From an uncultured virus (IMG/VR IMGVR_UViG_3300006752_000020) (lineage: Duplodnaviria; Heunggongvirae; Uroviricota; Caudoviricetes): a stretch of DNA of 20,000 bases. The translations under genes and the position numbers were made by a program. Each line of letters begins with the position of its first letter. The stretch's first letter is position 1. Under the pieces are notes generated by a model that was given only the letters and a program-made list of their open reading frames with translations, did not search any database and had not been told where the DNA came from. The DNA is taken from the IMG/VR virus record IMGVR_UViG_3300006752_000020, one strand, 5' to 3'. Positions 2,553 to 19,466 of the stretch are shown in pieces.

Positions 2553-5500
2553 TTATTTATCCTTTAGTTCATCAACCTGTGAACTCAGGTCTTTGACTGC
2601 TTCAATAAGGAGAGGAATTAGTTTGTTATAGTGGACACCTTTAGTGCCATCAGGTTTGGTAGATACTGCCTCAGGGAGAACTTTTTCTACATCTTGAGCG
2701 ATAACGCCAACATCGTGACCTGTATAGCTCTTGTTACCTTCCTTCCAATCGTATTCAGTACCACGAATCTGCATAACCTTAGCGAGAGGATTATCAAGTG
2801 TGGAAACATTTTCCTTCATAGCAAGGTCAGATGTCTGACCATAGAAAGCAACAATGTCATCACATACATGGAGTGGACCACCACAATATGTAAATCCTGC
2901 ACCACTCATGAATACATCACCAGAGAATGTGGTGAAACCATTGAAGTTAACCTGCTTCTCAAATGTTACAGATGCTGTGTACCTAGTATCAGTTGCGATA
3001 GCAACAGCGAATCCAGTTGCAGCATTAAGAACAAGATCACCAGATCCAGCAACTGTTCTAATTTCTGTCTGTTGAGTACCAACACCAACCAGAACATTGT
3101 TTAACTTAGCACCATTCGGGAAGTTTCCAACAATTTCAAGACTTCCACCAAGTTCAACAGTACCACTAGTAATTAAGTCATCAGTGAAGTTAACATCGTT
3201 GGAGAATGTGACAGGACCATCAAACTGAGATAGGATATTCTGTTGAGGACCACCTTCAACAATGATTCTTTGTCTAACAATAACTTCATCAAATACAACA
3301 GAGTTACTAGATGCAGATTCACCTGTTACAGTAGGAATAGGAATACCGAAGGATGATTCTTCACCACTAGAAGAAGAGATTCTCTTGTTACCAATGTAGA
3401 AGTCACCTTCATTATTCAGACCAGTATATACAATTGCACCTGCTGATCTTTCTTGTGCCTGTGACAAATACTCTTCATCATCAGTCAGTGTTCTGTTCTG
3501 TACTTGGGGAAGACCTGTTGAATAGTTACCAGGACCATATCCAAGATATTCAAATGTGTATCCAGATGCACGAAGAATCGATGGACGACGCATTTCAATA
3601 GCTAAAGGATCGACTTTTCTGATCAATGATCCTACATAATGTTCTGCCGGTAGTGTACCAAGCGCACCTCGAATAACACGAAGACCATCATTACCACCAC
3701 CAATCAAACCTTTTTCAGATACTCTCATGATCTCAGCATCAACCTCAACATAATCACCAAGTTGGAATCTTAAATCAGTACCAATACCAGCATTGGGAAG
3801 TTGTAGTCTAAGTGTTGTTGATGTTGCATCTAGTGCATCTTTAGCAGTTGCATGCTCGCCACCATATAGATTGGTATATCTCGATCCAATAGCTTCACTA
3901 AGTGGAACTGTCTGATTATTACCATTGAATGCAGTTTTATACAGTCTATATCCAGCACTATAATTGATATCATTTACTGTTGTAGTAGTAAATGTGTTAA
4001 TACCTGCAACTGTATTAACCGTAAATTCTCCAAGATTGTTGCTACTAGCATCTACAATCTTGAATCTAGATCCTTTACGGAGTCCGTGAGGATAAGATGT
4101 TGTGACAGTTGTCAATCCTAATGTGCTATCAAAATGAGTTGATGCTAGAGAGACAGAAGGTGTAACTCTGTAAGCATATTGACCTTCAATAACAATAGGA
4201 TCGCCAGATGTTACTGCAATAGCAATACTATTCTTATCTGGTACACTAGTAATTCGGAATAATCCATCACTAGTTGTGCCAATACCAGTAATTGATACTA
4301 CATCACCAATACATGATGAAATACCAGAAGTGGGAACACCAATAGAAGATCCGGGATAATTCTCAATTGTTAATGTTTCTCCACCAGAGAAACCAGAACC
4401 AGGAGCAAATACTTCAAATCCAGTAATGGTAGTAGAACCAACACCTACAGTAACTGTAGCTGTGGCACCATTCCAAACACTACCATTTAGTAGTCTTATA
4501 TTATGTTGTGTAGTTACAGCATATCCCGTAGAAGATACCAAATTCTCGTGAATCTTAAGTCCACCTAAATCATGTTGGTTTTCAAAGGTAACTGTACAGA
4601 CACCAGCAGAAATACCAGTAACACTGGATACTGCATAACCAACATTAAATGTAGTTAAGAACTTATCAACAGTTTCTCTGGTCAAAGAGTTCTTAAGATC
4701 ATTTACATCAACTTTACCCAAAGGTGAGCGTCTTGCAAATGATTTTGCAGCTGGTGGGTTAATTAGAACATTATCTCTATCCTGTTGTGGATAGTAAAAA
4801 GTAACATTCTGCTCATATTTCTTAGGAGTAAACTCCTGAGGTGGTGAATAGTCAGCAGAAAGAAGTTCTAAGATGTAAACACCATCCTCCTGTCCAGCGA
4901 GATATTTTTCAACAACGGTACTACGATATACTGAGAAGTTTTTCTTATTATTGTTAATTGCAAATCTAGGCAGGAATAAATTTCTGCTGTTGACAGTAGA
5001 GACAAAATTACCAGTGTTTCTTTCTACACCACCATTGTCAGTATTGCCATAATTAAATTGATATGCATCAATTAATCCACTAACAGTAAAATATCCATTG
5101 TATCCTTTGTTAGCAAGTCCACCAGTATTATTAGAGTCTTGAACATTCTCTACGAAGATGATATCTCCAACCTCAACCATGTGAGGTAATTCAGTTCTAA
5201 CAGTAACAACAGATCCTGTTTCACTGATATCAGCAATAAACTGATGATTTCTCTTAAAGTTGTTATCGTCAAGAGAAATTGTAGTTGATGACGGATCACT
5301 AGTCTTAGCAAATCCAGTGAGGCTAGAGTTTTGGATGATGAAACCATTTACAGGGTCTCTAGAGTTTCCTGCCTCTTTAGGAATAACATATCTTACCTTA
5401 TACAACTTATCTTCAATACTTCTCTTATCTTCAAATCTTCTGATGAAACCAATGTTAGTTCCAGCTCCAGCGTCTAAATTGATATTTGTTTGAATCTGAG

Positions 5501-7787
5501 GATAGATTGTATTACCATCCTCTACATGCAAGAACCATTGTTCCTGGTTAATATCCCATTGAATTGGATGACCAATATCACCAGTTTGCTTATCAGATAC
5601 TGTACTTTGAACTCTTAATGATGAACCACCAAATAATTCAATGGGGATACCATTAATAGCATTGGAGAATGTAGTTGCTACTTTTAGTTCGGTTGGAGAA
5701 TCTACGATAGCATAATATATTCTATTAAATTGAAGACCTTCTGGGAGATCACCATCATCACTGAAGATTCTAATCTTCTCACCTGTTACCAAACCAATAG
5801 CAGTATTGGTCATTGCAAACTGACTATTTGGAACAGTTAGACTGCTATTTTTAGACCCAGTTTGATCACCAAGGATTGCTGTCGCAACACCAGACAGAAC
5901 ATTCTCTGACATACGAACATCAGCATTATATTCTGTACCACCAATAGAGACATATAATTTTTCTGTATTATTGGCACCAATTCTAAAACCCTGAGAGAGT
6001 GATAGAGGTGGTTCATCCTGACGATCAAACCCGAAGATATACAGGTGACTGGATAAACCAACATTTTTGGTCTTACTTACATCTAACTGGTAGAAACTTA
6101 CAGTATCAATTTTAGATGCTGATGTATCTACATGCTGAGGTGTGGTGATATGTGTAATATATCCTTGATCATCTCTTGGGAATGCTGCATCTCTAAATCC
6201 ATCTGCTAATAGAGCAAATTGACCAAAGTTAGAGTTTGAGTTAGTAATAGATGCGTCAGCACCACTTTCACCAACAAAGTGAGCATTGTAACCAATAGCA
6301 AAAACAGAAACGACTTGAACAACAGCGTTTTCTGAGATCTTGATATGAGATTGTTCCCATCCTTGTCTATAAACTGCACCAGAGTCTAGGTGATAAACAG
6401 TGGTGGCATCAGTAGATGAAGATTCTGCTGAAAGCGTAGATCCAGATACTTTTTGATATGCAATACCTTCGTAGAGTCTAGATTGTGAGTTGTACTTAAC
6501 AAATGCACGGTCATCTTTTTGTAGACTAATTCCAGTGAATTGAGCCACAACCATTGAACGGAAACCAGTAGCTTTACTACCATCCGTATGCATCCCATTC
6601 ATGCCAAAGACAGAACGCAATGAGATATTAAAGATATATGGAGATGCGCCAGTTACCGTATCAGATTCAATAGTAACAACAGCACTTGTAATGTTAGAAG
6701 GTGTTGCTGGTAAATTATTTGGAAAGGTTGCAAGGCTATATGTAAATGTAGTAGCATCTACAATAGATTGAACAATTGTTGAGATATTGTATTGTGATAC
6801 ATTTACACCACTAATCTTAATAGGAGTACCGGCACTTAATCCGTGCTCCAGTTGTGTCGTAACAGTGATCTGAGATGTAGGACTTAAACCATCACCAGAG
6901 ATGATACTTGCAATCTCTAGAGGGTCAGTACCAAGAGCACCAACGATCTCATTTTCTTGACGAACTGCTTCAAAGTCACCTTGATTTTCAGGCCATTCGT
7001 ATGAAATAGCACGACCAGATGCTTCTTGGAAAGCATATGTCAGCTTGTAATAATACATGCTGAGGTCAGTGATACCATAACCTTTGACATCATTCTTACC
7101 ATCAGCATACTCAAAACAAGTAAGTTTGTGGTGAGAAAATGCTGGAAATGATCTATTGTCGTCATTAAATTGCTGGTGATCAGTAAATACTAATCGATCA
7201 CCCACTCCATCGAAGAAAGAGAATTGCCAGAAGTAACAGTTACCAGTAATTCTGAAAATACTACTTGCAGGAACATCATCATCTGTAGGATTAGGTACAT
7301 ACAGAGGACGAAGTTTAGTCTTTCTAAGATCAAGTCCAACAACGGAAGTACCACGAGGTACAATTACACCACCGTTGACGGAGTTGAATCTATATAATTG
7401 ATTGTTTTCTACGGTTAGATCAAATTCACTTGTCAATGACAAAGAAAATTCAGTTGTGCCTAATGTTTCTGCACCGATTGGAGATACGCCAACCGCCCTA
7501 GTCGGATCACTGGGATCTTTTTTAATAGCAAAACCAGGACGATTGTCGATGAAGTGATCACCGGGAAACAAGAGAATAGTTGTCTTGTCAGTAATATCGT
7601 TATCGAATCCAGTTTGATACGAGAATCGTGCAGATTCTAATAATGCTCGCTGAATAGTTTTGAAGGGTTTTGTTAAGGAGTTACCCTGGTTCGTGATACT
7701 ATCAGTGGCATCAAGATCGTTAGGGTTAACATAAAGAATTTTACCTTCAGTATTCTTGATGAAATTCTCTAGCTTATTAAGTGGCAT
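2553..7787 (-). CDS. Large tail fibre/tailspike-like structural protein with C-terminal intramolecular chaperone (peptidase S74-like)
   Basis: 1744-aa ORF. N-terminal LYVNP...GNSLTKPFKTIQRAL motif as in cyanophage structural proteins; repeated HGL..G..I.I modules; C-terminus SDLAMKEN...YDWK...GVIAQDVEKVLPEAV...VHYNKLIPLLIEAVKDL fits the S74 autocleaving chaperone pattern. Confidence 0.85.
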   Translation of the reverse strand: MPLNKLENFIKNTEGKILYVNPNDLDATDSITNQGNSLTKPFKTIQRALLESARFSYQTGFDNDITDKTTILLFPGDHFIDNRPGFAIKKDPSDPTRAVGVSPIGAETLGTTEFSLSLTSEFDLTVENNQLYRFNSVNGGVIVPRGTSVVGLDLRKTKLRPLYVPNPTDDDVPASSIFRITGNCYFWQFSFFDGVGDRLVFTDHQQFNDDNRSFPAFSHHKLTCFEYADGKNDVKGYGITDLSMYYYKLTYAFQEASGRAISYEWPENQGDFEAVRQENEIVGALGTDPLEIASIISGDGLSPTSQITVTTQLEHGLSAGTPIKISGVNVSQYNISTIVQSIVDATTFTYSLATFPNNLPATPSNITSAVVTIESDTVTGASPYIFNISLRSVFGMNGMHTDGSKATGFRSMVVAQFTGISLQKDDRAFVKYNSQSRLYEGIAYQKVSGSTLSAESSSTDATTVYHLDSGAVYRQGWEQSHIKISENAVVQVVSVFAIGYNAHFVGESGADASITNSNSNFGQFALLADGFRDAAFPRDDQGYITHITTPQHVDTSASKIDTVSFYQLDVSKTKNVGLSSHLYIFGFDRQDEPPLSLSQGFRIGANNTEKLYVSIGGTEYNADVRMSENVLSGVATAILGDQTGSKNSSLTVPNSQFAMTNTAIGLVTGEKIRIFSDDGDLPEGLQFNRIYYAIVDSPTELKVATTFSNAINGIPIELFGGSSLRVQSTVSDKQTGDIGHPIQWDINQEQWFLHVEDGNTIYPQIQTNINLDAGAGTNIGFIRRFEDKRSIEDKLYKVRYVIPKEAGNSRDPVNGFIIQNSSLTGFAKTSDPSSTTISLDDNNFKRNHQFIADISETGSVVTVRTELPHMVEVGDIIFVENVQDSNNTGGLANKGYNGYFTVSGLIDAYQFNYGNTDNGGVERNTGNFVSTVNSRNLFLPRFAINNNKKNFSVYRSTVVEKYLAGQEDGVYILELLSADYSPPQEFTPKKYEQNVTFYYPQQDRDNVLINPPAAKSFARRSPLGKVDVNDLKNSLTRETVDKFLTTFNVGYAVSSVTGISAGVCTVTFENQHDLGGLKIHENLVSSTGYAVTTQHNIRLLNGSVWNGATATVTVGVGSTTITGFEVFAPGSGFSGGETLTIENYPGSSIGVPTSGISSCIGDVVSITGIGTTSDGLFRITSVPDKNSIAIAVTSGDPIVIEGQYAYRVTPSVSLASTHFDSTLGLTTVTTSYPHGLRKGSRFKIVDASSNNLGEFTVNTVAGINTFTTTTVNDINYSAGYRLYKTAFNGNNQTVPLSEAIGSRYTNLYGGEHATAKDALDATSTTLRLQLPNAGIGTDLRFQLGDYVEVDAEIMRVSEKGLIGGGNDGLRVIRGALGTLPAEHYVGSLIRKVDPLAIEMRRPSILRASGYTFEYLGYGPGNYSTGLPQVQNRTLTDDEEYLSQAQERSAGAIVYTGLNNEGDFYIGNKRISSSSGEESSFGIPIPTVTGESASSNSVVFDEVIVRQRIIVEGGPQQNILSQFDGPVTFSNDVNFTDDLITSGTVELGGSLEIVGNFPNGAKLNNVLVGVGTQQTEIRTVAGSGDLVLNAATGFAVAIATDTRYTASVTFEKQVNFNGFTTFSGDVFMSGAGFTYCGGPLHVCDDIVAFYGQTSDLAMKENVSTLDNPLAKVMQIRGTEYDWKEGNKSYTGHDVGVIAQDVEKVLPEAVSTKPDGTKGVHYNKLIPLLIEAVKDLSSQVDELKDK
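2554..2561 (-). promoter_or_regulatory. T4-like late promoter motif (GATAAATA)
   Basis: Matches the NATAAATA late consensus, overlaps the stop codon of the 1744-aa gene and lies about 30 nt upstream of the ATG at 2525. Confidence 0.65.
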
Positions 7788-7860: not shown

Positions 7861-8439
7861 ATGTCTGATATTAGACCGATTAAATGGGTAGCAATTGGCA
7901 CGGGCACATTGTTTGCTATAGCGCACATTGGTGTTCTTGGACATTTAATCAATACAACAAAAACGCCAGAAGTTCCAATTATTAATTTACCCAGAGGAGA
8001 TTATTCTTCTTACAAAATTGAAGCAAGTAAAGACGGATATAGTATAGAGTATAAAGCGAACGATCCTGCTGTTCTTAATTCTGAAAGATCTCTTGACTTA
8101 GATAAAAATAAGAATGGATTCTTTGGTGGTAATAGTAATGAAAGGAGAACTGAATATCGCCGTGATGAATACACAATGGACGGCACTCGTAACTTAGGAG
8201 GTGCTGGATTAGACAGCGAGGGAAAGTCTGCAAAAGAAGTAGAGTGTTTGATCGCGGACGCTGGAGCACGATCACAAGGTGCAATGGCAGGAACTAGCAT
8301 TGCTGCCGGTATTGGTGTTCCTGCTGTGATTGGTATTCCATATGTTGGATGGTTAGCAGCTGGATGGATTTCACTTTTGGGTGGTAAGATTGGATCCGAG
8401 GCAGGATCTACAGTTGGATCCGTATTTAATGATTGCTGA
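7861..8439 (+). CDS. Hypothetical membrane protein (N-terminal hydrophobic helix, C-terminal glycine-zipper-like segment)
   Basis: 192-aa ORF. WVAIGTGTLFAIAHIGVLGHL at the N-terminus; Cys-flanked G/A-rich hydrophobic C-terminus (GAMAGTSIAAGIG...IPYVGWLAAGW...GGKIGSEAGSTVG). Confidence 0.8.
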   Translation: MSDIRPIKWVAIGTGTLFAIAHIGVLGHLINTTKTPEVPIINLPRGDYSSYKIEASKDGYSIEYKANDPAVLNSERSLDLDKNKNGFFGGNSNERRTEYRRDEYTMDGTRNLGGAGLDSEGKSAKEVECLIADAGARSQGAMAGTSIAAGIGVPAVIGIPYVGWLAAGWISLLGGKIGSEAGSTVGSVFNDC

Positions 8440-9242
8440 TGGCCGAAATACCTAACATTGATCTTTCAGTTCGGCAAATTAATATTAACTCACTAGGTAT
8501 ACCTGATGTGCCTAAATGGTTGACATCTGAACCACCTCAGGCTATACCAATCTATCCACCAGTTACTTCACAAATTGGCACACCTATTATAAACATGCCA
8601 GGATGTGTTGAGTCTCATAGAGATAGTGGTGAGAATCAAACACTCAAGGAAGAAGATAAAGATGGTGTCCAGATATTTTGTGATGCAGGAACACCTAGTT
8701 TTAACCCAATAGATTATGATCCAAATAAGTTGGAGATAACAACAGAGTCTCCACCACCTCCACCCATTACACCTCCTGAGAAAGAAGATACTAAAACAGA
8801 TACCGAAGCACCACCACCTCCTCCACCGCCTGCAAAGGCAGAGTGTCCTACAAGAGAGCAGCAGTTAAAGAACCCTGTAGGAAAAGTATTACAAAATGAT
8901 AAAAAAATTACTAGGTATGAGACAGTAGGAAAAGAATGTCTCCCCGTATTTGAGAATTTAAATATACCAGATCAGATTATTGCTAACCTACCATCTCCAG
9001 GTGCTGTAACTGTTACCGCCTCAATTGCTGTAGTCGCGACGACATCTGCACTGCTTGCAAAGCCTCTTGCTGATCTTTTGTTAAAGGTTGTGAAACCGAC
9101 TGTGAAGAAGGTAATGAAGAAGATTGCGACCTTACGGGGTAAGACGCCCCCGGTACTGTCTGCGTCTGAGAGGAAGGCTGAGCAACGGGATCGGAACCGG
9201 GCGATAAAGATTTTACGGTCGGCACTGAAACCGAAGGGATAG
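8439..9242 (+). CDS. Hypothetical proline-rich membrane-anchored protein
   Basis: The ATG at 8439 overlaps the upstream stop (TGATG), so it is preferred over the TTG at 8433. Four Cys residues, poly-Pro linker, hydrophobic helix AVTVTASIAVVATTSALLA and a basic tail. Confidence 0.8.
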   Translation: MAEIPNIDLSVRQININSLGIPDVPKWLTSEPPQAIPIYPPVTSQIGTPIINMPGCVESHRDSGENQTLKEEDKDGVQIFCDAGTPSFNPIDYDPNKLEITTESPPPPPITPPEKEDTKTDTEAPPPPPPPAKAECPTREQQLKNPVGKVLQNDKKITRYETVGKECLPVFENLNIPDQIIANLPSPGAVTVTASIAVVATTSALLAKPLADLLLKVVKPTVKKVMKKIATLRGKTPPVLSASERKAEQRDRNRAIKILRSALKPKG

Positions 9243-10050
9243 TGTGACGATGTTGCTTAATACTATTAACATTGTTAACTACGACATCCGCACATATTTT
9301 TCTATAGGGGCTGCGTGGGTGGAAACTAATTCCTGCCTTCATTAATTCTCCACAATTCTTAAGTCTGGCTAGCTCAAAGTCTAACCTCTTATTGGCAAGC
9401 ATTTGACCTTGAAGTGCATTTTGAGTATCTGCTGCTGCCTTACATCGTTCCTGTAACCCACCATCAAGTGGGAAAGAAATTGTTGCAGATAAACCAATAC
9501 TGGTACTATAGTTTCTAGTATCGCCAGTTCTCACTGGTTTCTTCCAAAGTTCACGACCTGGATTATCAGGAACACCGTCTCCAGCCATTTCCATGGTGGT
9601 GATAGTCATGTCTGCACCATCTTCAAATGCACGAACAGTCTCACCATCTGAGTTGGTATATGTTCTATCATCATACCAAGATTCCCATGGCCAGTTCTTG
9701 ACATTTTTTTGAGTCTCTACCATCTGACCTTCAAAATCTCTATTGTCATACTGAGGTTCCATATAATATGTGGAGAATGGATCCTTCTCATTACGAGCAT
9801 GAGTAATGAATGGTGTGATATTAGCAGTCGGTCCTTGACATGCAATACCCCCACCATATTGGTTGGTTATATATGGTCCTTGTAATACCTGAATAGCTTG
9901 GTTCGTAACTGAGCCTGAGCTATTTGCGATTGGGTTTGCTGTTGCACTTACACCCCCTACATCCGCTGCATGAGCAGGGGCAGCTACAACCACAGTCAGA
10001 ACAGATAGACATAAGGTTTTTACTGGGTAAAGATACTTGTTGTGTCGGTT
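9013..10050 (-). CDS. Exported, probably outer-membrane, hypothetical protein; true start uncertain
   Basis: The frame is open from 10311 to 9013, but its first ~95 codons overlap the 147-aa gene. A signal-like segment (KRNRHNKYLYPVKTLCLSVLTVVVAAPAHA|AD) begins near 10050. The mature part has amphipathic strands and a helix. The upper coordinate is approximate. Confidence 0.75.
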   Translation of the reverse strand, partial: NRHNKYLYPVKTLCLSVLTVVVAAPAHAADVGGVSATANPIANSSGSVTNQAIQVLQGPYITNQYGGGIACQGPTANITPFITHARNEKDPFSTYYMEPQYDNRDFEGQMVETQKNVKNWPWESWYDDRTYTNSDGETVRAFEDGADMTITTMEMAGDGVPDNPGRELWKKPVRTGDTRNYSTSIGLSATISFPLDGGLQERCKAAADTQNALQGQMLANKRLDFELARLKNCGELMKAGISFHPRSPYRKICADVVVNNVNSIKQHRHTIPSVSVPTVKSLSPGSDPVAQPSSQTQTVPGASYPVRSQSSSLPSSQSVSQPLTKDQQEALQAVQMSSRLQQLRR

Positions 10051-10463
10051 ACGCTTGTGACCTCGGTCAACCTTTGGATCACAGTTTGATTTGAAACCCC
10101 TGGACCGCTGTAAGTTTGAGTAAACTGAAAAGCCGCACCCGGATTTGTTATCTTGAAGTTTTGATTGGACATACTCAATGCTGAGTTGTTGCTCGTTATC
10201 TGCCCTTCTGTACCCCCAAGAGGATTTACTATCACAGAGTTTGTTGTTTGTGATGGAGTCAATGATTGTCCACCATTGTCCACATTTGTTCCGCTTACTG
10301 AATACTGCCATCCTGTTGCATAATCTATGGAATTAATCGTTTCAGTCACCTTCGATGTTGTCTCAGTGTGACTAGACATACTACCCTGAGTAAAATTTGG
10401 GACCACAGGGACCGCCATTACTGGAGATCCCATTAGTATGGTCAAGAGAAATATCTTCCTCAT
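10020..10463 (-). CDS. Secreted Thr/Ser/Gln-rich hypothetical protein (apparent paralogue of 10472-10969)
   Basis: 147 aa; signal peptide MRKIFLLTILMGSPVMA|; GAGG ribosome-binding motif upstream; motifs QYSVSGTNV and GAAFQFTQTY. Confidence 0.85.
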   Translation of the reverse strand: MRKIFLLTILMGSPVMAVPVVPNFTQGSMSSHTETTSKVTETINSIDYATGWQYSVSGTNVDNGGQSLTPSQTTNSVIVNPLGGTEGQITSNNSALSMSNQNFKITNPGAAFQFTQTYSGPGVSNQTVIQRLTEVTSVTDTTSIFTQ

Positions 10464-10471
10464 GATAAACC

Positions 10472-10969
10472 TCAGTCAATTACAGTGATTTCACTTACAA
10501 ATTGACCAATTGCTGTACTACCAGCTCCGCCAGCCGTCACCGTAAGAGCACCAGTAGTGCTAACAGTACCTGCTAGACTACCAGCAGTTCCTGCAGTGTA
10601 AGAAGTTACATTAGAGAAGTTTGGAGTTGTTCCTGTTGTTACTGCTGCAGTTGGGACTGCATCACCTTGAAGGTAGGAAGTACTGAAAGAGAATGCCTCT
10701 CCTGCAGTTGCTTGAGTTGCAGAAATATTTCCAGGAGAATATATTCCACTCGAAATTGTTCCAGCAGAAACAGCACCTGCCGTAGTTCCGTCTGTAGTAT
10801 TTACATTGGAACCAGAGATACTATACTGGGACCCTAATCTTGTTGCTGAACTTCTAGCAGAGTCCACAGTCAGTTGGACACTAGAAGACATTTTATGAAC
10901 TAATCCGCCAGCGTTTGCTACACTAGCGGTCATCAATAACATTCCAAAAGCTAGTAAAGCTTTCTTCAT
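10472..10969 (-). CDS. Secreted Thr/Ser/Gly/Ala-rich hypothetical protein
   Basis: 165 aa; classic Sec signal MKKALLAFGMLLMTASVANA|; motifs QYSISGSNV and GEAFSFSTSY. Confidence 0.85.
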   Translation of the reverse strand: MKKALLAFGMLLMTASVANAGGLVHKMSSSVQLTVDSARSSATRLGSQYSISGSNVNTTDGTTAGAVSAGTISSGIYSPGNISATQATAGEAFSFSTSYLQGDAVPTAAVTTGTTPNFSNVTSYTAGTAGSLAGTVSTTGALTVTAGGAGSTAIGQFVSEITVID

Positions 10970-11001
10970 TTTTATTTGATTGTAGGAGAACCTACATTAT
11001 A

Positions 11002-11085
11002 TAGGAGTAGGGAGACTTGAACTCCCACGAGATTACTCTCAACAGATTTTAAGTCTGGTGCGTCTACCTATTCCGCCATACTCCC
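11002..11085 (-). tRNA. trnL: tRNA-Leu (anticodon UAA), CCA not encoded
   Basis: Reverse complement GGGAGTATGGCGGAATAGGTAGACGCACCAGACTTAAAATCTGTTGAGAGTAATCTCGTGGGAGTTCAAGTCTCCCTACTCCTA folds as a cloverleaf: acceptor GGGAGTA/TACTCCT, anticodon loop CTTAAAA, long variable arm, T-loop TTCAAGT, discriminator A. Confidence 0.96.
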
Positions 11086-11562
11086 AAACCAATTGAAATT
11101 AATAACAAGTCTATGGTCATCTGTAGATGTAGTACCACTATGCATGGTATTTACTGGAAAAATGACCATACGATTTGCTACACTTGAAACTTTTTCTCCA
11201 TCCTCAAAATAAGTATATCCATTATTTGAATTGATATAGTAGACAGCTGTCCATTGATCTGGAAGAGTGGTTACCCTATCAATATGAAGAGCATTTTCTA
11301 AAAATATATCTCTCTTTGGACTAAAATTGGCTTTAATTCTAGTCCAATTATATGGGTTGATATATTTTGTGAATATATTAGTAACTTCCCTATTATAATT
11401 AGAACCGTATTGATATATGCATGTCACCATAGCATATAGGTTTGGATCTTCTTCACCCTCATACACTACATTTTTATTATAGAACCAATTGATATCCTTG
11501 AAGATATTAATTATTGTTTGGTGATCTTCTTCAGATAAAAAATTATCAAGAACCTTCATCAT
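11068..11562 (-). CDS. 2OG-Fe(II) oxygenase superfamily protein
   Basis: 164 aa with HxD (HID), TAVYYIN..NGYT.F, a distal His (MHSG) and RLVINFN. This fits the facial triad plus 2OG-binding Arg of cyanophage 2OG-Fe(II) oxygenases. Confidence 0.8.
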   Translation of the reverse strand: MMKVLDNFLSEEDHQTIINIFKDINWFYNKNVVYEGEEDPNLYAMVTCIYQYGSNYNREVTNIFTKYINPYNWTRIKANFSPKRDIFLENALHIDRVTTLPDQWTAVYYINSNNGYTYFEDGEKVSSVANRMVIFPVNTMHSGTTSTDDHRLVINFNWFGSMAE

Positions 11563-17901: not shown

Positions 17902-19466
17902 TATGAATACCTATACTTTAGATCTTTCATAATATCAATATAATCTCCACCACCTGACTCGTATACATTACTGCCCATGTTTTGATTATCTTCAGATTCG
18001 CTATTTACAGATGATGATCCACCCTTAATATTTAGAGATGCAACTGAGAATGGAACCATTATTGGTTCTGATTGCACAGTTTCATAAGATGGCATTACTG
18101 ATGGTATTTTTTGCATACCATCTAAAGATGAGACAAGCCTCTTAGGAGGAGCAACAACTTCTCCAGTAAAGGGGGCAGTGCCAGGGAATCCATATTCCAT
18201 GGGATTAATTGCATTCTTTCTAGGATATCCAGTAATACCTTCTGCTTTACCAAGTTCCCAATGCAAGTGTGGTCCACTAGATCTTCCAGTTGATCCTACT
18301 CTACCAATAATATCGCCTGGTTTTACTTTATCATTCTTCTGATATGGAGACTGTTCCAACATGTGTCCATAAAAATGCTCCAGTCCATTTGCATCCACGA
18401 ACACAACATAGTTACCATAGCTCTTTTCAAACCCCTTATCAGTGATAGTAGAATCTGAGGGAACCGTGAGCGCAGAACCAGACTCCGCAGGAATATCTAA
18501 TCCCATATGACCTCGCCCAGCACCAATACCATCTCCTAGAGCATATCCAGGAGGTTTTTTCCCAGTATCTTGAAATATTAATCCAGATGTTTGTGGTTGT
18601 ACTCCAGGAGAAGGTTGTTGGCGAGTTGTTGGTGCCTGTCTTGTCTCAGCAGGAGGTGAAGGAGGAAGAGTAGTTGGAGGCTGCATAATAGTCTCTACTT
18701 GCTGATTGTACTCTTGTTGAGTAATTTCTCCCCTATCTAGTTTTTCCTTAGCTTCTGCAATTTGAGACTGTTGATTAACACTTCGTCCAGTAGGTATTGC
18801 AGGTGTTGTTGGCATAGGATCTAATCCTAGTTTTTGTCTAGCATCAGCAATTTCTCTTTCACTCTGTGATTTTAAATCCTCAAAATCTCTAATAGTATCA
18901 TTAAATGTTTTGTCAACATCTAGTTGAAGTTGTGAGAAATCTTTAGTTAACTCTTCAAACTCTCGTGTAACTTCCCGTTCACTTGTAAATATTTTTCCAG
19001 ATATTAAATCTCTGCTTAGTGCAGCAGCCGTATCCTTAAGACTTTGTAAGACATTTCCAATGCTACTGACGACTGTAACAATATTATCATACAAATTAGT
19101 AACGAACTGAGTTACATCCTCAACAATTACAATAATTTTTGGGAGATTTGCTAATAACCAATCAAGAAGAATCCAACCAGCTGCTTTCAGTAACCCAGAA
19201 AATATACTCTTAGATCCTTTGATGGCAGAAGAAATTCCACCTTTAATAAAATTCTGAGGTTTTTTTGCCTCTACAATTTTCTCTGCATCTTTTGTTCTTG
19301 CAGTATCAACTTCTAATCTGTCAAGACTTAACTTAGTCGTTTCTCTTTGTTTATCTTTTCTAATCTCCTTACCTAAAGACTTCCTAAGACCTTGAGTGGT
19401 CTGCCTAATAGAAAGCAGACCTACATCAACAATATTTAATGCCTCATTAGTAGGAATTAATTTCAT
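17901..19466 (-). CDS. Virion-associated protein with coiled-coil N-terminus and M23 (LytM) metallo-endopeptidase domain
   Basis: 521 aa; HxxxD (HMGLD), YGNYV, YGHM and IGRVGSTGRSSGPHLHWE (HxH) are M23 motifs; amphipathic helical N-terminal half and P/Q/T linker. Confidence 0.88.
   Translation of the reverse strand: MKLIPTNEALNIVDVGLLSIRQTTQGLRKSLGKEIRKDKQRETTKLSLDRLEVDTARTKDAEKIVEAKKPQNFIKGGISSAIKGSKSIFSGLLKAAGWILLDWLLANLPKIIVIVEDVTQFVTNLYDNIVTVVSSIGNVLQSLKDTAAALSRDLISGKIFTSEREVTREFEELTKDFSQLQLDVDKTFNDTIRDFEDLKSQSEREIADARQKLGLDPMPTTPAIPTGRSVNQQSQIAEAKEKLDRGEITQQEYNQQVETIMQPPTTLPPSPPAETRQAPTTRQQPSPGVQPQTSGLIFQDTGKKPPGYALGDGIGAGRGHMGLDIPAESGSALTVPSDSTITDKGFEKSYGNYVVFVDANGLEHFYGHMLEQSPYQKNDKVKPGDIIGRVGSTGRSSGPHLHWELGKAEGITGYPRKNAINPMEYGFPGTAPFTGEVVAPPKRLVSSLDGMQKIPSVMPSYETVQSEPIMVPFSVASLNIKGGSSSVNSESEDNQNMGSNVYESGGGDYIDIMKDLKYRYS

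Follow-up and report, generated by a model that had tools for sequence, protein, structure and literature searches.

A conserved cyanophage gene cassette of probable exported and membrane proteins and its possible action on the host envelope

The locus and its five genes

The DNA analysed here (the window, 20,000 nucleotides (nt) long) comes from an uncultured tailed virus, IMG/VR record IMGVR_UViG_3300006752_000020. It belongs to a contig of 112,306 bp from a T4-like cyanomyovirus, and the contig is incomplete. The closest isolates are the S-RIM12 phages, at ~78% nucleotide identity. We describe a cassette of five genes, g1 to g5, found at positions 7861-10969 between a tail-fibre-like gene and tRNA-Leu(TAA). 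A preliminary description, made from the sequence alone, had taken these genes for an envelope module, perhaps a secretion, surface-fibre or pore system.

All five open reading frames (ORFs) are real and lie where the preliminary description placed them. On the plus strand, g1 (7861-8439, 192 amino acids (aa); phrog_605, E=1.2e-89) is followed by g2 (8439-9242, 267 aa; phrog_570, E=1e-107), and the ATG of g2 shares bases with the TGA of g1 (TGATG). On the minus strand lie g3 (9013-10311, an ORF of 432 aa; phrog_848/1755), g4 (10020-10463, 147 aa; phrog_650; Pfam DUF6322) and g5 (10472-10969, 165 aa; phrog_564, E=1.9e-72). The coupled plus-strand pair with hydrophobic segments, and the convergence of g2 with g3, are thus as first described, but that gene layout hid two long overlaps. 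In one, g4 and g3 overlap out of frame on the minus strand (10020-10311), the first 97 codons of g3 lying within the 3' two thirds of g4. In the other, g2 and g3 share 230 nt of coding sequence tail to tail on both strands (9013-9242).

The matches of g1-g5 to PHROGs have E-values from 1e-52 to 2.7e-122, and all these PHROGs are populous and carry no assigned function. In a Pfam scan g4 alone belongs to a family, DUF6322. The five proteins gave no match in NCBIfam and none to the PADLOC models, and the protein atlas returned only their own viral clusters, 'Gp163' and 'Gp164 family'.

Relation to a known cassette

The genes are already known as cyanophage hypotheticals, as the preliminary description had suspected. 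Judged by annotated relatives in S-SM2, P-SSM2, P-HM1 and P-HM2, g1 is T4-GC 219, g2 is T4-GC 234, g3 is T4-GC 235, g4 is T4-GC 236 and g5 is T4-GC 237. In Syn9 the counterparts are gp163 to gp167, one family for each gene from g1 to g5, in the same order and orientation.

In its account of hypothetical genes, Sullivan et al. 2010 (Environ Microbiol, PMC3037559) describes a cluster of T4-GC 218, 219, 234, 235 and 237, which a 'plasmid stability' gene, T4-GC 414, 'often' adjoins. According to the same account the cassette is found in 15 of 16 cyanomyoviruses, is mobile, is frequently near tRNAs and has no assigned function; a mobile cassette clustered for functional reasons is proposed. In Syn9 this cassette corresponds to gp161 to gp167. 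The present locus shares with it the homologues of T4-GC 219, 234, 235 and 237, clustered and in conserved order. It differs in that the T4-GC 218 homologue, a DUF6450 protein, is encoded ~60 kb away beside the small terminase gene, and that T4-GC 414 was not found by tblastn on the 112-kb contig, which is incomplete. The passages of Sullivan et al. 2010 on the cassette make no mention of signals, of either overlap, of T4-GC 236 as a member or of copies in podoviruses. A literature search found no publication that mentions DUF6322 by name, and none on cyanophage holin, spanin or endolysin genes by title or abstract.

Distribution, synteny and neighbourhoods

When the proteins were compared by tblastn with 50,697 phage records, g1 was found in 365, g2 in 408, g3 in 433, g4 in 411 and g5 in 411. 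All positive records are Synechococcus or Prochlorococcus phages or marine single-cell virus records. Given the PHROG E-values and these matches in 365-433 phage records, all five ORFs are far beyond chance. Among metagenomic proteins, g3 and g5 have more than 7,000 relatives each. In contigs of prokaryote genomes, no relative of g3 was found by exact peptide patterns of its own subfamily, a search of low sensitivity that says little about homologues in hosts.

Synteny was examined in 80 related IMG/VR loci, and the counts refer to the loci with room for the gene in question. The g2 gene is convergent with g3 and abuts it in 78 of 78 loci, g4 is directly upstream of g3 in 72 of 72, and g5 is found upstream in 61 of 61. 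The first gene behaves otherwise: g1 adjoins g2 in 22 loci, stands 60-1000 nt from it in 12 and more than 1 kb from it in 23, is absent despite room in 14 and could not be assessed in 7. Wherever it is found g1 is on the strand of g2, and of 57 loci with both genes only 22 have them side by side. The g5-g4-g3/g2 block is therefore invariably syntenic and g1 is only loosely linked to it. Of the five-gene unit first proposed, g2-g5 hold together and g1 is tied to them only loosely, and independent occurrence, which would have spoken against a unit, was not seen for g2-g5 across these loci.

The block is found in differing neighbourhoods in S-RIM12, Bellamy, S-SM2, P-SSM2, P-HM1/2, Syn9 and S-SKS1 (a Llyrvirus), and it moves between them as one unit. 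In several T4-like myoviruses it is often beside tRNAs or photosynthesis genes, and psbA/psbD, hli, petE and talC are among its neighbours. In the T7-like cyanopodoviruses 9515-10a, P-SSP3 and KBS-P-1A, a homologue of g3 is found in the interval from the tail fibre gene to the small terminase gene. The neighbouring ORFs were scanned in 9515-10a and KBS-P-1A, where g3 is accompanied by g4, by a g2-like protein of phrog_9426, which is short and rich in Pro and ends in an A/T/V-rich segment and a basic tail, and by a two-helix DUF6450-like protein (phrog_721/2714/21865, the T4-GC 218 family, Pfam DUF6450). The g3 and g4 genes of the podoviruses are found amid late morphogenesis and packaging genes rather than next to psbA. 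The module is conserved across unrelated cyanophage lineages. We found no other late-region cluster of exported or membrane proteins that the myoviruses, the podoviruses and S-SKS1 have in common.

In the window itself, the tail-fibre-like gene occupies 2553-7787 on the minus strand (phrog_529, E=0). On the other side the cassette is bounded by tRNA-Leu(TAA) at 11001-11086, minus strand. The 5' end of this tRNA shares 19 nt (11068-11086) with the last codons and the stop of a 2OG-Fe(II) oxygenase-like gene, which lies at 11068-11562 on the minus strand and matches PF13640 with E=1.5e-5. Scans for promoters, terminators and the motif TATAAATA gave counts at or below chance, and no transcription unit could be defined from them.

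The overlap of g3 with g4

The preliminary description gave Sec-type signal peptides to all three minus-strand genes. Those of g4 and g5 are N-terminal, as it had them, but the signal-like segment of g3, TLCLSVLTVVVAAPAHA/AD (the slash marks the end of the segment), is internal. It covers residues 99-115 of the 432-codon ORF (DNA 9967-10017). Between the ATG at 10311 and the hydrophobic core there is no ATG, GTG or TTG, and the next such codon, GTG at 9993-9991, lies inside the core.

We looked at the two frames in 66 usable related loci, among which g4 has 53 distinct sequences. In 53 of 53, the g3 frame runs without a stop from an ATG that precedes the g4 stop by 289 nt (by 292 nt in a single lineage). 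When the codons of g4 were permuted synonymously, this frame stayed open in 1.4% of the trials on average, with a maximum of 4.7%. The ATG itself (10311-10309) is formed by the Gly51 and Trp52 codons of g4, GGA TGG, and the Gly codon is GGA in all 53 sequences, compared with 60% GGA among the Gly codons of these genes. The closest in-frame stop upstream of the ATG is seven codons before it in 44 of the 53.

The same arrangement is seen in more distant phages. The first ATG of g3 is 193 nt inside g4 in KBS-P-1A, it is 8 nt past the ATG of an unannotated g4 in 9515-10a, and in S-SKS1 the start of g3 is likewise within g4. Many relatives have no alternative start codon. From these patterns we infer that g3 is translated from the ATG at 10311, within g4 and in another frame.

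The resulting leader of g3 (residues 1-96) is basic, with an isoelectric point of 9.8 and 18 K/R against 8 D/E. It shows 36-78% identity over the same loci in which g4 shows 71-97%. At the four-fold degenerate sites of g4, the overlap is no more constrained than the rest of the gene (entropy 0.98 vs 1.05, p=0.28). As the synonymous-site entropy shows no difference, the leader is under no detectable extra sequence constraint, and just the open frame and the ATG are kept.

Frameshifting from g4 into g3 was considered as the main route and rejected, given the open frame with its fixed ATG, the stop seven codons upstream, the ATG position in 9515-10a and the lack of any other start in many relatives.

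Public annotations of g3 and g4 disagree because there are two conserved dual-coding regions, and the gene calls for g3 are of either 326 aa or 425-436 aa. In S-SM2, S-SKS1 and 9515-10a, g4 is unannotated because the long overlapping g3 ORF was called instead. These missing DUF6322 genes are at 4495-4866 of our locus L084 (9515-10a), at about 5513-5947 of L003 (S-SM2) and at 4001-4417 of L100 (S-SKS1). Two IMG/VR loci are irregular, maybe due to an insertion or an assembly problem: in L050 the g4 ORF is shortened to 29 aa and the g3 frame is open just 9 codons upstream, and in L063 the frames run on abnormally.

The overlap of g3 with g2

The tail-to-tail overlap is 209-233 nt long in 61 of 61 distinct related loci, and after synonymous permutation of the g2 codons the g3 frame is open in 0.2% of cases on average. 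Within the overlap the pairwise identity is 0.87 in the g2 frame, compared with 0.73 for the g3 tail, which is about that of the non-coding frames (0.72-0.76). Another antisense frame is also open here, in 36 of 42 sequences. Elsewhere the overlap measures 215 nt in P-SSM2, 80 in Syn9, 15 in S-SKS1 and 4 in P-HM1/2. From these identities and lengths we read the long g3 tail as a lineage-specific and weakly constrained extension.

Signals and membrane segments of g1, g2, g4 and g5

Both g4 and g5 start with a classic Sec-type signal of the cleavable kind, MRKIFLLTILMGSPVMA/V in g4 and MKKALLAFGMLLMTASVANA/G in g5. We used a simple heuristic, which requires K/R among residues 1-6 as well as a hydrophobic core and a motif of the form small-x-small; it is satisfied by 52 of 52 distinct g4 homologues and by 49 of 50 distinct g5 homologues. 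The mature part is rich in S/T/N/G in g4 and in S/T/G/A in g5, and neither contains a Cys.

The g4 protein matches PF19847 (DUF6322) with E=1.5e-34 and 118.9 bits, against a cut-off of 30.6. For g5 itself the local model PF19847.4 gave no match at E<=0.1, and PF19847.5 is found on all 120 g5 relatives among the matches listed in a precomputed annotation. The two proteins had been described as related subunits, and this was borne out in part: BLASTP gives E=0.003 over just 12 residues and hhalign a probability of 89% over just 16 columns. They have the motifs G(W/S)QYS(V/I)SG(T/S)NV and (A/E)AF(Q/S)F in common. We consider g5 a probable distant paralogue of g4. The g5 model is poor (mean predicted local distance difference test (pLDDT) 52, predicted template modelling score 0.23), too poor to judge the beta-rich character first ascribed to it, and was left out of the fold search, and the g5 profile found nothing below E=0.28 among PDB sequences (2026 copy). 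As to curli, pilus and other fibre families, the Pfam scan of g4 and g5 returned only DUF6322, for g4, and NCBIfam returned nothing. In GenBank, g5 homologues of ACG-2014a/b/d, S-MbCM6 and S-CAM1 are labelled 'OMP1 protein'; we did not find the basis of this label in the literature.

The g1 protein has a hydrophobic helix near its N terminus (residues 7-30), then a hydrophilic middle and, towards the C terminus, a glycine-zipper-like hydrophobic block (140-175). The g2 protein has a Pro-rich middle or linker, one moderately hydrophobic C-terminal segment (about 187-215) and a strongly basic C-terminal tail with 17 K/R against 3 D/E. Conserved cysteines are confined to g1, g2 and g3. In g1 they are Cys129 (43 of 43 sequences) and Cys192 (42 of 43), and g2 has four, conserved in 63, 63, 63 and 62 of 63.

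In cyanobacteria Sec signals serve the thylakoid lumen as well as the periplasm. The signals of g3, g4 and g5 could then lead to the lumen, where the module would alter the photosynthetic membranes during infection, and the psbA/psbD, hli, petE and talC neighbours in several myoviruses would fit such a role. The podovirus copies do not, lying as they do among late morphogenesis and packaging genes rather than next to psbA. Nor do the mid to late transcription described below and the lack of similarity to photosynthesis families in Pfam, and we regard a thylakoid target as very unlikely.

The g3 protein

From the N terminus, g3 consists of the basic leader, the signal-like segment with its signal-peptidase-type end (AHA/AD), a conserved domain with cysteines, long beta-hairpins and a 42-residue helix, and, last, an S/P/Q-rich tail that is poorly conserved. 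We aligned 60 diverse family members; positions of the conserved cysteines, of the insertion and in the model are numbered on a 336-residue query. In the alignment the leader and the hydrophobic segment can be recognised, as can a block of conserved N-terminal motifs, a hairpin that ends in PLD, and the long helix. Three or four Cys are conserved in the domain; Cys194 and Cys224 do not vary at all, and Cys244 hardly does. Cys101 is not conserved, and its context, KTLC, is no lipobox.

A ~60-residue insertion (DNRDFEGQMVETQKNVKNWPWESWYDD...MTITTMEMAG; window 9550-9760, residues about 88-150) is absent in most of the 60 aligned members. It is specific to a subfamily, being shared by the closest aligned relatives, and forms extra strands in the model.

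The g3 model has a mean pLDDT of 71, rising to about 90-97 at the last hairpin and the helix (~95 for the 42-residue helix). Compared with the PDB by Foldseek, its best hit has E=0.09 and a template modelling (TM) score of 0.06, which is no meaningful match. In a wide search with VIA-align only the single helix was matched, with Z about 5, and the beta part was unmatched. The g3 profile found nothing below E=0.28 among PDB sequences (2026 copy).

A model with four copies of residues 44-262 gave ipSAE interface scores of 0.65, 0.61 and 0.65, against 0.00 for the best of 3 controls. The mark used for ipSAE is reached by 20 of 30 solved one-chain pairs and by 1 of 23 single chains, and is a rough guide only for this prediction, made with its own alignment and with four copies. 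At least 90% of the contacts agree among the four-copy runs, and the pLDDT of the partners is 76-78. The predicted interface includes the pairing of strand 65-74 in one copy with strand 177-186 in the next, as well as packing between the long helices. The modelling supports self-association of g3 copies side by side.

Such pairing of strands between copies gives some weight to the idea of a minimal secretion, fibre or pore apparatus, with g3 as a channel ring, g4 and g5 as a surface structure passing through the ring or resting on it, and g1 and g2 as membrane partners. The low-complexity, Cys-free, S/T/G-rich g4 and g5, with no confident fold for the g5 monomer, would suit it, and so would the strict g5-g4-g3 synteny and the translational entanglement of g4 with g3. 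However, neither sequence nor fold searches connected the proteins with curli, pili, secretins, TolC, autotransporters or outer-membrane proteins (OMPs). The strands of g3 are mostly polar, and a surface fibre made mid to late in a lytic infection would bring no obvious benefit. We judge this apparatus quite unlikely. The outer-membrane-like protein of the preliminary description found no Pfam, NCBIfam or fold match, and the likeness of the five genes to fibre-assembly or trans-envelope channel systems was not upheld, as there is no family or fold link to TolC, OMPs, curli, pili, secretins or spanins. The pore idea of that description draws weak support from the side-by-side model.

Virion proteomes and timing

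T4-GC 218, 219 and 234-237 are all missing from the virion proteins of S-SM1, Syn9 and S-PM2 listed in Suppl. Table 8 of Sullivan et al. 2010 (PMC3037559). This bears on a virion-associated or morphogenetic role, in which the products would be low-copy tail or fibre accessories or assembly chaperones. The cassette does abut tail-fibre genes here and follows the tail fibre gene in podoviruses, and g1 is weakly similar to a tape-measure PHROG (E=0.0059). Against this, the proteins went undetected in all three proteomes, g3 and g5 have no related chain in the PDB (2026 copy), Sec signals do not fit easily with assembly in the cytoplasm, and the neighbourhood varies among phages. Such a role is highly improbable.

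For P-HM2, supplementary file 6 of Thompson et al. 2016 (PMC5082946) classes transcription of the homologues of g5, g2 and T4-GC 218 as Late, and that of the g4 homologue as Late in light and Mid in dark. In four RNA-library runs relatives are represented by short contigs only (5-6% of the sampled words). Each of the five genes is covered in places by such contigs, and these runs are not informative on transcription, strand or transcript ends.

Candidate lysis genes on the contig and membrane proteins in a podovirus

The DUF6450 protein is encoded at 470-907 of the contig (L094:473-907, minus strand), beside the small terminase gene; elsewhere in cyanophages its gene is within or next to the cassette. 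It has 145 aa, two helices and charged ends (phrog_2714/721/21865, Syn9 gp161 family) and is a holin-like candidate by topology only. There are two candidates for a peptidoglycan hydrolase. One is a 168-aa protein (contig 43206-43712; L096:10209-10712, minus strand) with a Phage_lysozyme2 domain (PF18013, E=6.7e-14) and a weak endolysin PHROG match. The other is a 521-aa Peptidase_M23 protein (window 17904-19466, minus strand), which also has a weak, sub-threshold SHOCT match (E=8.2e-6).

A strongly hydrophobic segment occurs in 10 of the 57 annotated proteins of KBS-P-1A. The DUF6450-like protein and g4 belong to these; the remaining eight comprise two products of the virion block, three small ORFs in the block that precedes the RNA polymerase gene, a protein of 65 aa that we read as like the high-light-inducible proteins (HLIP-like), a gp222-like protein and PsbA. 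In T7, holin 17.5 and spanins 18.5/18.7 are encoded in the interval that separates the tail fibre gene from the small terminase gene.

Possible role of the cassette

Taken together, the cassette is probably a module of exported or membrane proteins that stands outside the known virion and is transcribed mid to late, as seen in P-HM2, the one phage measured. This much of the preliminary description, a conserved exported or membrane unit apart from the known virion, holds up, except that one member of the wider module, the DUF6450 gene, is ~60 kb away here.

Beyond this we tentatively propose that the host envelope is the target of the module as infection ends, in lysis or envelope breaching. 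We put this forward because of the T7-like genome position, the lack of other late-region membrane proteins in KBS-P-1A and the topology of the products. The conserved domain of g3 would be exported and form a side-by-side homo-oligomer, g4 and g5 would be released into the same compartment, and g1 and g2 would be anchored in the cytoplasmic membrane. Together with the DUF6450 protein, the module would carry out the spanin or outer-membrane step of lysis, perhaps also the holin step, with proteins that are not homologous to the usual ones.

Several points weigh against lysis or envelope breaching. The argument is built on position and topology. Cyanobacterial Sec signals lead to either the periplasm or the thylakoid lumen, so that the target may be other than the envelope. 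The cassette holds no endolysin, none of the five proteins has a lipoprotein box and hence there is no o-spanin equivalent (g4 and g5 being Cys-free), and g4 and g5 have no counterpart in known lysis systems. The long strands of g3 are mostly polar, unlike those of a membrane-embedded barrel. In T4-like phages the cassette is often housed in the variable region with the photosynthesis and carbon-metabolism genes. The P-HM2 homologue of g3 falls in the Mid cluster (Thompson et al. 2016, PMC5082946). Finally, S-PM2, a lytic T4-like cyanophage, has no g3 by a profile search that was positive in Syn9, S-SKS1 and KBS-P-1A; a search of S-PM2 with PF19847 was also empty, yet was so in every genome including the controls and is uninformative. 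The lack of the cassette in S-PM2 agrees with Sullivan et al. 2010 (PMC3037559).

That the cassette is dispensable in at least one lytic cyanophage, S-PM2, would suit a remodelling of the host surface, in which exported proteins coat or block the receptor or envelope and so exclude later phages or protect the progeny from adsorption to debris. Its mobility and presence in variable regions would be in line with this, as would products that are exported or membrane-bound and missing from virion proteomes. The known exclusion genes imm and sp of T4 are early, however, unlike the cassette, whose transcription in P-HM2 is mid to late. There is also no PADLOC match, and the genes are kept at the lysis position in very small T7-like genomes. 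Surface remodelling is in our view unlikely.

A more specific form of the lysis proposal would see in the cassette a shared lysis or envelope-perforating machine, present in at least three lineages of picocyanobacterial phages and unrelated to known ones. In it g3 would form a ring or sheet by strand pairing with a helical collar, and its start hidden in g4 would tie the syntheses of both proteins together. With g5, the tail-anchored g2 and the glycine-zipper g1, it would open the outer layers instead of spanins. We consider this complete picture doubtful. T4-like and T7-like cyanophages kill a substantial share of oceanic Prochlorococcus and Synechococcus, and the cassette is among the most widespread cyanophage gene sets without an assigned function. 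If it is a lysis or envelope-breaching system, it would represent a new mechanism and offer a handle on the timing of marine viral lysis.

Comparison with known systems

TolC/OEP, OMP barrels, curli and pili have in common with the cassette only the general idea of exported subunits with an oligomeric partner. For TolC/OEP and OMP barrels there is no Pfam or NCBIfam match at E<=0.1 and no fold match for the beta part of g3, although a missing fold match does not exclude a family.

The holin of T4, gp t, has one N-terminal helix and a large periplasmic domain. The g1 protein is similar in having an N-terminal helix followed by a hydrophilic domain, and the DUF6450 protein resembles holins by its two helices and charged ends. 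Unlike holins, g1 has an additional C-terminal glycine-zipper block, and none of g1, g2 and the DUF6450 protein matches a holin family in Pfam or PHROGs.

The arrangement of g3 and g4 is comparable to E within D in phiX174 and to Rz1 within Rz in lambda, where also a second frame is kept open inside a conserved gene and its product is exported or membrane-bound. In contrast to these pairs, only the 5' leader of g3 is overprinted, the leader sequence is weakly conserved and the synonymous sites of g4 show no detectable extra constraint in the overlap.

Spanins (lambda Rz/Rz1, T7 gp18.5/18.7, T4 PseT.3/PseT.2) differ from the cassette on several counts. It has no outer-membrane lipoprotein, shows no family or fold match to them and includes two extra secreted proteins. 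The hydrophobic segment of g3 comes after a leader of ~96 residues and ends in the signal-peptidase-type motif AHA/A. In g3 some features recall an i-spanin, namely the segment at 99-115 after a basic leader and the 42-residue helix, but the signal-peptidase-type end and the lack of a spanin family match are not among them. Like spanins, the cassette would be directed to the envelope, has adjacent genes that overlap out of frame, and combines a long helix, presumably periplasmic, with conserved Cys. As is the case for the T7 spanin genes, its genes stand beside the terminase genes in T7-like cyanophages.

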